Assembly (NCBI GenBank): GCA_964496765.1
Contig: CAZCAP010000003.1
Location: 991 to 64,990 of the forward strand
Direction: 5' to 3'
DNA: 64,000 nt
Origin: an uncultured archaeon
GTDB lineage: Archaea > Iainarchaeota > Iainarchaeia > Iainarchaeales > CSSED10-239
A program made the translations under genes and the position numbers. Positions within the stretch are counted from its first letter, which is position 1. Every line of letters starts with the position of its first letter. The notes beneath the pieces are model-generated. The model worked only from the letters and a program-made list of their open reading frames with translations, was not told the origin of the DNA and made no database searches. Shown piece by piece: positions 41,841 through 44,459 of this stretch.

Positions 41841-41889
41841 AGGTGAAGGATAAACTTCCTTCTTCTTTTCTTCCTTTTTATATGCCGTA

Positions 41890-41914
41890 AGAGGTTCAAA
41901 TCCCCTCTGGAGCT
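41890..41914 (+). other. tRNA-like T-arm plus acceptor 3' fragment (not a complete tRNA)
   Basis: AGAGG-TTCAAATCC-CCTCT followed by GGAGCT contains the T-loop consensus GTTCAAATC. No D arm or anticodon arm lies upstream. Confidence 0.3.
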
Positions 41915-41985
41915 GACTGCACAAAACCCCCTAATTTGTGCACTCGAAACACACATTTAAAAATATATTTATTCATATATATAAT

Positions 41986-43248
41986 ATGGATAAACAATAT
42001 TTAGAACAAATAGTTTTAGATCAAAAGGAAAGATTGTCTAAACTGAAAGATGGGTACCCAAGAAACAAACTTGCGGATTTATCTGATTTAATAAAACATA
42101 AAATAAACATAGTTGTGACGGGTCATAGAAGAAGTGGTAAATCCACATTTTTATTACAATGGATGAATAAATATTATAATTCTGATTTTTATTATTTAGA
42201 TTTTTCTGATGAAAGGTTAGTGGATTTCAAAACAACTGATTTCCAATTATTATATGAAATATTTTTAGAACACTTTGGAGAAAAAAATATTTTTTATTTT
42301 GATGAATTACAAGGAAAGAAATATGATTGGAATAAATTTGTAAATAGACTCTACTCCGAAGGGAAAAGATTTTTTATAACTGGTTCTAATGCCGATTTAT
42401 TAAGTAAAGAAATATCCACTTATTTAACTGGTAGGCATTTTGATATAACGATATACCCTTTTTCTTTTAAAGAATACTTAGGGTATAATAATTTTAATAA
42501 AAATTATAAATCAACATCTGGTAAAGTAGAAGTTATAAAATATTTTAATAATTATATAAAACAAGGTGGTTTTCCAGAAGTTATTGTTTATAAAACTACA
42601 GATATATTAGATAATATATACCAAGATGTAATAAATACAGATATTTTGAATAGGTATGATATAAAAGAGGATACTGAATTTAAAAAAATGACTTTGTTTT
42701 TAATATCTAATTTTGGGAGAGAATTTTCATATACTTCTTTAAAGAACAATTTTAATTTAGGCAGTACTCATACAGCTATAAAATATGTGTCTTATTTAAC
42801 AAATACCTATTTGTTATTTGAATTAACCAAATATGATTATTCTTTAAAAAAGCAGGATACTTATTCTAAAAAGATATACTGTATAGACACTGGTTTGGTA
42901 AATAAGATTTCTTTTAATTTTTCAGAAAATATAGGTAGATTATATGAAAATTTAGTATTTATAGAATTAAAAAGAAGAAATAAGAATATTTATTTTTGGA
43001 AAGATAAATTGGATTTAGAAGTTGATTTTTTAATTGTGGAAAAAAATAAGGTAGCTTCTCTAATACAAGTAACTTATGATATAAGTAATCTTAAAACTAA
43101 AGAAAGAGAAATAAAAGGTTTGCTTTCTGGATTAAATGAATTTAAGCTTAAAGAAGGAATAATAATAACAAAAGATTTAGAAAAGGAAGAGAAAATAGAT
43201 AATAAGATAATTAAGTATATTCCCATATGGAAGTGGTTATTGGAATAA
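41986..43248 (+). CDS. AAA+ ATPase, COG1373/DUF4143 family (complete paralog)
   Basis: Walker A GHRRSGKST, Walker B-like IFYFDELQ, a DUF4143-type middle region and C-terminal EVDFLI..LIQVT (degenerate D..ExK). The ATG at 41986, preceded by an AT-rich TATA-like tract, is preferred over the GTG at 41938. Confidence 0.8.
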   Translation: MDKQYLEQIVLDQKERLSKLKDGYPRNKLADLSDLIKHKINIVVTGHRRSGKSTFLLQWMNKYYNSDFYYLDFSDERLVDFKTTDFQLLYEIFLEHFGEKNIFYFDELQGKKYDWNKFVNRLYSEGKRFFITGSNADLLSKEISTYLTGRHFDITIYPFSFKEYLGYNNFNKNYKSTSGKVEVIKYFNNYIKQGGFPEVIVYKTTDILDNIYQDVINTDILNRYDIKEDTEFKKMTLFLISNFGREFSYTSLKNNFNLGSTHTAIKYVSYLTNTYLLFELTKYDYSLKKQDTYSKKIYCIDTGLVNKISFNFSENIGRLYENLVFIELKRRNKNIYFWKDKLDLEVDFLIVEKNKVASLIQVTYDISNLKTKEREIKGLLSGLNEFKLKEGIIITKDLEKEEKIDNKIIKYIPIWKWLLE

Positions 43249-43577
43249 TCTTCTTGAATTAGAACCACTAAGATATATTTAAATATATGTTATGCCATAA
43301 TATTTGCACTAACCTCCCTGTCATTGTCGCGAACAAGGGTAGGTGTACTAACCTATTTTTATGACGTGGATAATTTCATATTATTTATGGTTAGGGTAAC
43401 AATTAAAATCAGCTTTGTTACCCCAACAACTTTGTATTACTCAAATATGATTAATATTGCCGATATTTGTTAGTTGTGAGTAATACATAATAAATTAGAG
43501 TTTTTTATAGGGCAAAACCAGGAGCTTTTTCACTTTAGGGTAGAAGCTCCTCTGGAGCTAGTAATTTTCAAAATAAG
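43249..43577. other. Unusually long hairpin-rich noncoding spacer (candidate small RNA, terminator cluster or element relic)
   Basis: A 329-nt gap between convergent genes. It contains a 16-nt palindrome ATATATTTAAATATAT (43273-43288) and four stem-loops at 43312-43344, 43394-43423 (9 bp perfect), 43433-43487 (11 bp perfect) and 43518-43555, plus T-runs at 43356-43360 and 43501-43506. Confidence 0.35.
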
Positions 43578-44459
43578 TTAACTTTTTTTTCGTTTTAGAT
43601 CTAGTCTTTTGCTATATTTGTATTCCCCTTTGTGAATACCCATTTTTGTTTTCTTTTGATTATCTCTATATTTTATTACTCTATCTTCTCTGTATTGTTG
43701 TAAATCATTGGAAATAACTCCTGGTCCACCTATGCACCCACCCTTGCAAAAAAGAATGTCTATGAACTTGATTTTTTTGTTTTTTTCCATTTCTTTTACT
43801 GCCCATGCAATGTTTTTTGGACCATCTACAATTAACACTTCATCAGGAGATAAGATATTTCTCACATGCATTGTTTCAGCAACTGCTCCAGATAATGGGT
43901 AAATTTTTGTATAGTCATTATACACTTTATCAAAATCTATATCTTTTGTTTTAATATTTGATTTTTTAAATAATTTGTTTTTTTTAAAATAGTTTATAAT
44001 TTCAACAAGTTCTGAAAAGGTAATTGCAAAATCTATATCTTTTTTGTTGTTGATTGCTTCTTGTTTTTTTGCTAAACAAGGGCCAACAAAGATTCTTTTT
44101 TGGTTTGGAAGCTCTTTTTTTAAATATCTGCCCATTATAACCATTGGTGATGCAATCTCAATAAGTTTGTTTTTGTGATGTGGATATTTGTTCTCAATTA
44201 CTGTTATAATTGTTGGGCAGTTCGAACAAATAAATTGTTTTTTATCTTTTTTTTTAATGCTTTCCTTAATTATCTCGTGATATTTTCTATTAATAAGCTT
44301 TGCTGCAAAGGTTAGTTCTACAATCTTATCAAAACCAATCCCCTTGAGGTCAAAAAGAATGTCAGGATATTTAAAATCAACAGGAAAAGAAGGAGCAAGA
44401 AGGCAAACACACTTCTCAGTTTGTAATGTGTTAACAATATCTAATAAATCTTTATTCAT
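43578..44459 (-). CDS. [FeFe]-hydrogenase H-cluster-domain homolog, ultra-short form (no F-cluster domains)
   Basis: The full length resembles Fe_hyd_lg_C: LLAPSFPV, GFDKIVELTFAA, FICSNCPT (L1), VGPCLAKKQEA (L2), DIDFAITFSEL and FCKGGCIGGPG (L3). Confidence 0.75.
   Translation of the reverse strand: MNKDLLDIVNTLQTEKCVCLLAPSFPVDFKYPDILFDLKGIGFDKIVELTFAAKLINRKYHEIIKESIKKKDKKQFICSNCPTIITVIENKYPHHKNKLIEIASPMVIMGRYLKKELPNQKRIFVGPCLAKKQEAINNKKDIDFAITFSELVEIINYFKKNKLFKKSNIKTKDIDFDKVYNDYTKIYPLSGAVAETMHVRNILSPDEVLIVDGPKNIAWAVKEMEKNKKIKFIDILFCKGGCIGGPGVISNDLQQYREDRVIKYRDNQKKTKMGIHKGEYKYSKRLDLKRKKS

Follow-up and report, generated by a model that had tools for sequence, protein, structure and literature searches.

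A hairpin-rich gap between convergent genes of an Iainarchaeota archaeon as the probable non-coding tail of a tRNA-bounded cassette

Structured and repeated sequences between genes are known from several systems. In enterobacterial intergenic regions, repetitive extragenic palindromes (REP) are arranged into bacterial interspersed mosaic elements (BIMEs). Integrons, which have been reported in Archaea too, hold gene cassettes with attC sites. In type III toxin-antitoxin systems (ToxIN, CptIN and TenpIN), a tandem-repeat RNA is processed by an adjacent endoribonuclease toxin and neutralises it. Archaeal integrative elements that target tRNA genes are among those that form islands at tRNA sites. 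Here, we describe a 329-nt, hairpin-rich gap (43249-43577) in a window of 64,000 nt (the whole stretch of DNA that was analysed) from an uncultured archaeon of the Iainarchaeota. An earlier note had proposed that this gap holds one or more small structured RNAs or, alternatively, a cluster of protein-binding sites or the decayed end of a mobile element. The gap is a chain of four independent modules, each of which recurs in related Iainarchaeota-like genomes: a promoter and hairpin unit (module 1) without its NYN gene, two Fic-promoter palindromes (modules 2 and 3) and a tRNA-derived boundary repeat (module 4). It is probably the non-coding tail of a cassette of ~1.7 kb (~41881-43577), made up of regulatory and attachment-site debris of shuffled cassettes.

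The tycheposon islands of Prochlorococcus have been described as products of serial integration at tRNA genes, with partial tRNAs left behind (bioRxiv 10.1101/2020.12.28.424599). In the full-text literature that we searched, neither cassettes bounded by tRNA fragments in DPANN archaea (Diapherotrites, Parvarchaeota, Aenigmarchaeota, Nanoarchaeota and Nanohaloarchaeota) nor an RNA motif upstream of NYN genes has been described. NYN/LabA-like proteins (COG1432) are predicted RNases, and no member had been studied for nuclease function according to a 2017 survey of the PIN superfamily (PMC5499597).

The genome under study (G000; 738 kb in 26 contigs, 86% complete, ~30% G+C) contains the window at positions 991-64990 of its contig C3 and codes there for RadA, Taw1 and archaeal-type tRNAs; the nearest named relatives of its accessory genes are genome bins of Candidatus Iainarchaeum/Diapherotrites, which places the organism among the DPANN archaea. 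The gap sequence was searched against 61 related genomes, and a covariance-model survey of the family covered 22 genomes. G001 is a sister genome of the same genus. Individual loci bear L numbers, of which L073-L133 are NYN loci from GTDB genomes and L161 and L163 are metagenomic.

The gap and the insertion that ends in it

The gap lies between a plus-strand AAA_14/DUF4143 gene (ending at 43248) and a minus-strand gene (ending at 43578) for a hydrogenase-like protein of 293 amino acids with an Fe_hyd_lg_C domain, after which Taw1 comes next. According to a crude gene call of the window based on open reading frames, the median gap is 31 nt, and only three of the 61 gaps are longer than this one, none of them between convergent genes; the earlier note was right to single it out for its length. 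The palindromes, repeats and T-runs that it had listed are all present:

43273-43288: palindrome ATATATTTAAATATAT
43308-43315 and 43347-43354: direct repeat ACTAACCT
43312-43319 and 43336-43344: arms of hairpin 1 as first read, ACCTCCCT and AGGGTAGGT
43356-43360: T5 run
43394-43423: hairpin 2, arms GGGTAACAA and TTGTTACCC
43433-43443 and 43477-43487: hairpin 3, arms TGTATTACTCA and TGAGTAATACA
43501-43506: T6 run
43518-43555: hairpin 4, CCAGGAGC/GCTCC(TC)TGG

What are these hairpins? The whole gap folds more stably than dinucleotide-shuffled controls on both strands (z -3.58 on the plus and z -3.95 on the minus strand; 0 of 100 shuffles as good). When the hairpins are considered one by one, hairpin 2 (z -3.5) and hairpin 3 (z -5.5) stand out from the shuffles, unlike hairpin 1 (z -1.0) and hairpin 4 (z -1.1). 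The suspected small RNA found no counterpart in Rfam 15: no family matches the gap at the gathering score, and with E up to 10 the best sub-threshold match has 19.6 bits as against a cut-off of 85 bits. A C/D-box or H/ACA small RNA was rejected: a weak snoRNA-like Rfam match on the minus strand has no structure, and neither C nor D nor ACA boxes could be read in the sequence. An open reading frame of 49 amino acids (43324-43473) was also dismissed, since the modules that it covers are found apart in other genomes and it has no conservation as a whole. From one stretch of the gap to the next, the matches lie at different loci in the related genomes, and also in contig C14 of G000, and the gap is therefore treated as four modules.

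Five relatives (G001, G016, G014, G006 and G020) have radA converging on the hydrogenase-like gene with little space between the two, in gaps of ~20-95 nt (~50 nt in G001), so that window positions 41881-43577 represent an insertion. It contains a tRNA fragment, a hairpin (hp0) with a promoter, the ATPase gene and the 329-nt tail, arranged as follows:

41889-41916, plus strand: left boundary, 3′-end fragment of tRNA-Thr(GGU), AGGTTCAAATCCCCTCTGGAGCTGA
41918-41986, plus strand: hp0 hairpin TGCACAAA-N9-TTTGTGCA and TATA-like box, upstream of the ATPase gene
41987-43248, plus strand: AAA_14/DUF4143 ATPase gene (PF13173, 4e-31; PF13635, 5.8e-25)
43268-43363, plus strand: module 1, orphan NYN-type promoter and hairpin RNA unit
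43361-43399, plus strand: 12-codon frame MTWIISYYLWLG with its stop codon, at the position where the NYN gene of relatives begins
43390-43428, no strand assigned: module 2, palindrome GTTAGGGTAACA-N14-TGTTACCCCAAC, operator-like, of one Fic promoter type
43431-43510, plus strand: module 3, decayed promoter/operator of the second Fic type
43511-43559, plus strand: module 4, dispersed repeat derived from tRNA-Thr, GGAGCTTTTTCACTTTAGGGTAGAAGCTCCTCTGGAGCT, right boundary of the insertion
43560-43577, no strand assigned: 18-nt junction from the end of the cassette to the stop codon of the hydrogenase-like gene, in comparison with the empty site of G001 (L063)

Both boundaries contain sequence identical to the 3′ end of a tRNA of the same genome, tRNA-Thr(GGU), for which G000:C5:1-72 and the end of C14 served as reference. 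On the left, 25 of 25 nt (41892-41916) match, with the core CCTCTGGAGCT at 41905-41915; on the right, module 4 ends in the same CCTCTGGAGCT (43549-43559), the last 11 nt of the tRNA (11/11). The inserted segment is thus framed by direct repeats, and relatives do not have it at the corresponding site. The intact ATPase gene, which probably starts at ATG 41987 (the open reading frame listing gives GTG 41938), is the sole surviving cargo of the cassette. Elsewhere in the family, the same gap is filled by MazEF-like or RelE-like cassettes, and it looks like a recurrent landing site for cassettes of one or two genes.

A paralogue of the ATPase gene on the minus strand of contig C13 (G000:C13:20181-21516; 92% protein and 90% DNA identity) shares window positions 41910-43252. 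It has the same hp0 upstream, as does an AAA_14 gene in G001:C32, and is preceded by a decayed tRNA-like stretch, GGTTAAAACATATTTAGAGCTAAC; its 3′ flank differs and holds the palindrome GTTAACAGTTAACTGTTAAAC. As the homology ends 4 nt past the stop codon, the tail and the ATPase gene can be separated, and the idea that the tail was duplicated as part of that gene was abandoned. With regard to the radA/hydrogenase-like gap itself, translations of the other small cassettes that it holds in G004, G017, G007, G011 and G019 (L051, L052, L056, L061 and L062) were read as an AbrB/MazE-like protein paired with a MazF-like one (550-700 nt), as a RelE-like toxin whose gene faces a small convergent gene, and as decayed remains.

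Module 4 is a dispersed repeat. It is 91% identical to G000:C14:18049-18102 and 93% to a copy in G001:C102, and an exact-match scan of metagenomes found it at 12 loci, with at least eight copies on one 977-kb contig, where it stands just upstream of Fic, methyltransferase and AAA_14 genes. On C14, the order is tRNA-Thr, two palindromes, Fic and module 4. Relatives of module 4 resembling a tRNA T-arm occur between genes and NYN units in G016 and G003. A viral origin was rejected on finding no exact match (0) in IMG/VR. Copies of module 4 share their sequence but not the 5′ arm of hairpin 4 (for example, TTGCGC in L160 and L161); window hairpin 4 is therefore probably incidental, and the proposal that it is a structured RNA is not supported, its stem not being conserved among its many copies.

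Some further features of these tRNA-related sequences were observed. Within 2-4 nt downstream of module 4 (L157, L158 and L162) and of the C14 tRNA-Thr there is a TATA-like GATTTTTAAA(A/T), and the boundary repeat may hold a promoter for the next cassette gene. In G000 and G015 (L031), two positions in the acceptor stem of tRNA-Thr(GGU) depart from Watson-Crick pairing, with a mismatch at U6.U67 and a wobble at U4.G69 (5′ GCTTCTG, 3′ CTGGAGC). The tRNA-like fragments in G003 and G016 have CAGAAGC, a perfect partner for the 5′ GCTTCTG of tRNA-Thr, which suggests that the 3′ end of this tRNA may have been replaced by an element-borne copy. C14 (19148-19201) and C5 share an overlap of ~55 nt at tRNA-Thr, and C5 begins exactly at its 3′ end, indicating that the assembly graph branches there.

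A promoter and hairpin unit without its NYN gene

Module 1 is the part of the tail with the clearest relatives. Its parts in the window are:

43278-43285: TATA box TTTAAATA
43317-43343: hairpin 1
43356-43360: T5 run
43361: ATG

Its transcript is predicted to start near 43308. The window copy scores 101.7 bits with covariance model R1 and 80.3 bits (E 2.8e-10) with R2. Hairpin 1 of the earlier note exists, but in a shifted register: the better-supported pairing is CCUGUC-A-UUGU-CGCGA-ACAA-G-GGUAGG at 43317-43343. Four close homologues have the TATA box TTTAAATA, a spacer of 22-23 nt, ACUAAYCUC, the hairpin and a U-tract, and in the window the same TATA box lies 22 nt ahead of ACTAA, so that the spacing is conserved. 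With the first covariance model, at least 13 copies were found in 10 of the 22 family genomes, up to three per genome; the second revealed units in other families of the order. These homologues mostly abut a downstream gene beginning with M..RVMIFIDGSNFYY, the product of which is an NYN protein (PF01936, 1.5e-27). Among 79 NYN loci from GTDB genomes, the unit stands upstream of about two dozen, with Iainarchaeota, Nanoarchaeota, Micrarchaeota and Methanophagales among the hosts, and it is thus widespread in DPANN and present in some other archaea.

The unit is composed of a TATA box, a short single-stranded 5′ end, a hairpin of 6+4 bp with a 1x1 internal loop, and a U-tract, and its consensus reads AUUAUCUC-CCUGCC-A-UUGC-UUCG-GCAA-C-GGCAGG-U-rich. 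The outer stem varies (CCUGCC/GGCAGG, CCUACC/GGUAGG, CCCAGC/GCUGGG, CCCAUC/GAUGGG and CACGUC/GGCGUG), and the pairing is kept in relatives through compensatory changes: in the alignment of NYN leaders, 99.2% of cells are paired, double changes are seen at four of nine pairs, and the score was not attained by any of 500 shuffles. Since the U.G wobbles are valid on the sense strand only, the structure is one of RNA, or else of the sense strand as single-stranded DNA. Canonical copies from eight other loci have no match in Rfam 15. The window copy departs from the family in its apical loop, CGCGA, which is commonly UUCG, and in two pairs that are wobbles. As for the small structured RNAs that the earlier note had considered, the part formed by the palindrome, hairpin 1 and T5 is upheld by homologues and covariation; the idea of a cluster of several RNA genes is not.

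What the window copy lacks is the gene. No adjoining co-oriented NYN (PF01936) gene follows, and module 1 is an orphan. Neither could a remnant be demonstrated after ATG 43361, because local alignments to eight NYN 5′ ends are mostly at the level of shuffles (p 0.08-0.29 for seven and p 0.017, uncorrected, for one). The 86%-complete G000 assembly has no NYN orthologue, just a paralogue with 27% identity. The metagenomic locus L163 has an intact NYN gene behind the same leader subtype as the window. Orphan or truncated copies are nevertheless common; those of G000, G001 and G015 have no gene and all stop at the start codon. At L069 (G011:C4, ~1400-1600), the promoter, the hairpin and 22 codons (MSDSLKRVMIFIDGSNFFKHYI with its stop codon) are kept, and the rest of NYN is deleted before an SMC-like gene, in a NUDIX-NYN-SMC neighbourhood that is conserved in G004 and G017 (genus g4). 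This is an independent loss of NYN in which the leader was again spared. Tandem units 174 nt apart are found at L036 (G021:C16, 1328-1600) and L040 (G019:C4, 1327-1601), each pair consisting of a full unit with ~25 NYN codons and then a unit with a different apical loop and a complete NYN gene. It looks like one NYN cassette was replaced by another via recombination in the conserved 5′ region. The orphan unit of the window may still yield an RNA of ~50 nt ending at T5.

Other details vary among NYN units. A direct repeat of 6-9 nt surrounds the hairpin in many copies in a lineage-dependent manner: ACTAACCT in the window, TATTATCTC in L085, L090 and L092, and TCTAATAA in L079. The three Iainarchaeum copies L085, L090 and L092 have a second hairpin (GGGATTG...CAATCCC) ahead of the start codon.

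Fic promoter palindromes and permuted modules

The palindromes of modules 2 and 3 have their homologues in front of Fic genes. Module 2, with the core GGGTAACA-N14-TGTTACCC and the general form GTTRGGGTAACA-N14-TGTTACCCYAA, has only three copies in G000, of which the other two are in tandem (C14:19056-19131) directly upstream of Fic, the proximal one ending 6 nt before the ATG of a 322-amino-acid Fic gene. There, the arms of the palindrome GGGGTAACA flank TTTTATAAAC, which has a TATA-like placement 22 nt before the Fic ATG. Homologues occur in G001:C42, G003:C90, L157, L158, L161 and L163. The palindrome pair precedes Fic genes in G003:C90 and L158 (Fic confirmed with Pfam in L158); in L157 the pair comes after module 4.

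The sequences with which module 3 can be aligned lie 5′ of a second type of Fic gene (Pfam 2.1e-19), in G018, G005 and G011. The intact order is two direct copies of TGTATTACTCA, the TATA box CTTTTTAAATG, an inverted TGAGTAATACA and an ATG ~20 nt further on. In the window, the outer arms are perfect and the inner (second direct) repeat, the TATA box and the ATG are degraded. Gene-less module 3 followed by module 4 is also seen in L161 and L163. At the intact Fic loci, inverted repeats bracket the TATA box upstream of the start codon, and modules 2 and 3 are accordingly predicted to be repressor operators. Hairpins 2 and 3, which bracket TATA-like boxes directly before the Fic starts of relatives, thus do not bear out the several small RNA genes envisaged in the earlier note. 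Its alternative of a protein-binding-site cluster or a decayed mobile-element end fits hairpins 2, 3 and 4.

How are the modules arranged elsewhere? The cassette, tail included, is found again in L161, where it stands between other chromosomal genes: after a gene for a TlyA-like methyltransferase come module 4, AAA_14, module 1, a linker as in the window, module 2, hp0, modules 3, 4 and 4b, and then a convergent gene of 840 amino acids. The hp0 stretch, of 61 nt in L161, stands between modules 2 and 3 in L161, L163 and G001:C42 and is absent from that position in the window. L163 has AbiEi-AbiEii, module 2, hp0, modules 3, 4, 4b and 1, and NYN. These permuted orders identify the modules as shared junction elements of accessory cassettes, and they recur at junctions between NYN, Fic, AbiE, AAA_14 and DUF4411 genes. 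Identity between L161 and the window is uneven: 65% in the 5′ part of the ATPase gene and 90% at its 3′ end, 94-100% over 43249-43389, 82% in module 2 and 94% in module 4. Only one of four flanking proteins of L161 has a detectable homologue in G000 (74% identical). Judged from these percentages, the mosaic fits a recent exchange of segments between different species. A further region of ~16 kb was noted in L158 (Ga0074198_1000002:324789-339594) and L156, with four copies of module 4, three of module 2, hp0 and module 3 arms interleaved with genes for Fic, AGOG-like, methyltransferase, radical-SAM, AAA_14/DUF4143 and queuosine salvage proteins.

Alternative explanations and known systems

If the gap is the tail of a shuffled cassette, the following course of events can be proposed. 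Cassettes would accrue at tRNA-Thr or at copies of module 4, through serial integration or exchange between repeats, and would be reshuffled through recombination between the repeated modules; coding regions would afterwards disappear or be exchanged, and their promoters, operators and leaders would stay. Repressors would bind hairpins 2 and 3 as DNA, hairpin 1 would form in RNA, possibly in a short orphan transcript of ~50 nt with its end at T5, and the tail would have no function for the two flanking core genes. Several points weigh against this reading. There is no integrase in or near the cassette, the sole PF00589 match in the 86%-complete G000 being on C2, no target-site duplication is visible at the insertion, and the recombination mechanism is one that we infer. 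The operator role of the palindromes is predicted from their position. The view of modules 3 and 4 as a gutted Fic cassette is weakened, since the gene-less pair is shared with L161 and L163 and would thus be an inherited unit, not a recent deletion in the window. Selection, and not recent transfer only, could account for the very high identity that modules 1 and 2 show to a distant genome.

Could module 1 instead be a working small-RNA gene, its hairpin kept after loss of the nuclease as, for example, an antidote or decoy against incoming NYN cassettes, comparable to an orphan antitoxin, with the rest of the tail kept as promoters for module 1 or the neighbours? The TATA box and its spacing to the start are conserved, the hairpin is intact and T5 follows it by 12 nt, and U-rich tracts stand behind the hairpin in most homologues, giving a promoter-hairpin-oligoU layout. 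Moreover, gene-less copies end at the start codon in G000, G001 and G015, the G011 copy is truncated after ~20 codons, and G021 and G019 have tandem partial copies. However, G000 has no NYN orthologue as a target, the window hairpin has two wobble pairs and is thermodynamically unexceptional (z -1.0), and its 94% identity to L161 is equalled by the 96-100% of adjacent sequence without recognisable function, which indicates recent transfer rather than selection. We regard this combined explanation as unlikely. Still less credit is given to the hairpins as recombination sites of an integron-like or single-strand-hairpin cassette system, acting as folded DNA that a recombinase would recognise, with the tail as a junction for capturing and shuffling cassettes, which we hold to be very unlikely. 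It would account for the permuted junctions (1-2-3-4 in the window, 1-2-0-3-4-4b in L161 and 2-0-3-4-4b-1 in L163), for the multiple copies of module 4 that bound cassettes, for the identity mosaic and for the assembly contigs that break at tRNA-Thr. Homologous recombination between repeats explains the permutations equally well, however, and each of modules 1-3 is tied to a particular gene and to one position with respect to a TATA box and a start codon, which expression signals fit better. Neither an integron integrase of the IntI type nor another dedicated recombinase, including a second tyrosine recombinase, was found in the 86%-complete G000, and the palindromes, being perfect stems, have neither the extrahelical bases nor the R/L boxes that make up attC sites, although no dedicated attC model was run.

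That the hairpins are terminators or RNA-stabilising 3′ structures of the two convergent genes would suit their location, the T5 and T6 runs and a minus-strand hairpin followed by TTTT. Yet the orthologous gap lacks these hairpins in ten relatives, the C13 paralogue with 90% DNA identity has no tail, and every hairpin has homologues 5′ of other genes, which leaves this explanation extremely improbable. The earlier note had already considered two convergent terminators insufficient, and G001, with the same two genes ~50 nt apart and none of the four hairpins, agrees with it. Beyond the cassette tail as such, one may imagine, in Iainarchaeota-like DPANN archaea, an integrase-less cassette system in which the ~45-nt module 4 is the recombination site, the tail is a functional junction and the orphan hairpin RNA is an antidote against NYN cassettes, and in which promoter-bearing single genes (NYN, Fic, AbiE and AAA_14) move among tRNA-Thr, module 4 copies and convergent gaps. 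As a joint claim, this is quite unlikely to be true in all its parts.

The answer for the gap is thus a deflating one: it is not a nest of new small RNA genes. The shuffled-cassette reading makes the window a case of how tiny DPANN genomes (~0.74 Mb assembled here) may gain and lose accessory genes, with one-gene units that have tRNA-derived bounds entering gaps between convergent genes and leaving promoters and operators there. For the NYN-leader hairpin RNA, the analysis contributes an orphan example and a wide survey of archaea in which the covariation is strong, and the hairpin is a concrete candidate ligand or substrate of NYN/LabA-like ribonucleases. Candidate operator sequences for archaeal Fic genes are also supplied.

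Compared with the NYN-associated unit of its relatives, window module 1 matches the covariance model and differs in having no NYN gene, a CGCGA instead of a UUCG loop and two wobble pairs. That unit resembles type III toxin-antitoxin systems in its series of promoter, structured RNA, leaky terminator and RNase gene, in its mobile, patchily distributed cassettes and in its orphan RNAs; unlike them, it has a single hairpin in all copies seen instead of a repeat array, and NYN is not of the ToxN/AbiQ fold. With BIMEs, the locus has in common short palindromic modules in variable orders, often past the 3′ ends of genes and between convergent genes. In contrast to BIMEs, there are 1-8 copies per genome here, with specific gene partners and promoter positions, and no transposase of the REP-associated tyrosine transposase (RAYT) type is evident. 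Integrons likewise have single-gene cassettes, often for toxin-antitoxin or defence functions, with imperfect palindromic sites between them in permuted arrays, whereas the cassettes here have their own promoters and a tRNA-derived boundary repeat without attC architecture. From tRNA islands, the locus differs in that its units are of 1-2 kb with one gene and no integrase found, that the window copy lies far from tRNA genes in a convergent-gene gap, and that its boundary repeat has a conserved non-tRNA part of its own, TTTTTCACTTTAGGG, with at least eight dispersed copies on one contig. It is like them in the copies of a tRNA 3′ end that flank the insert, the decayed partial-tRNA copies among cargo genes, the integrase-free units that consist of cargo only and the empty site in a close relative.

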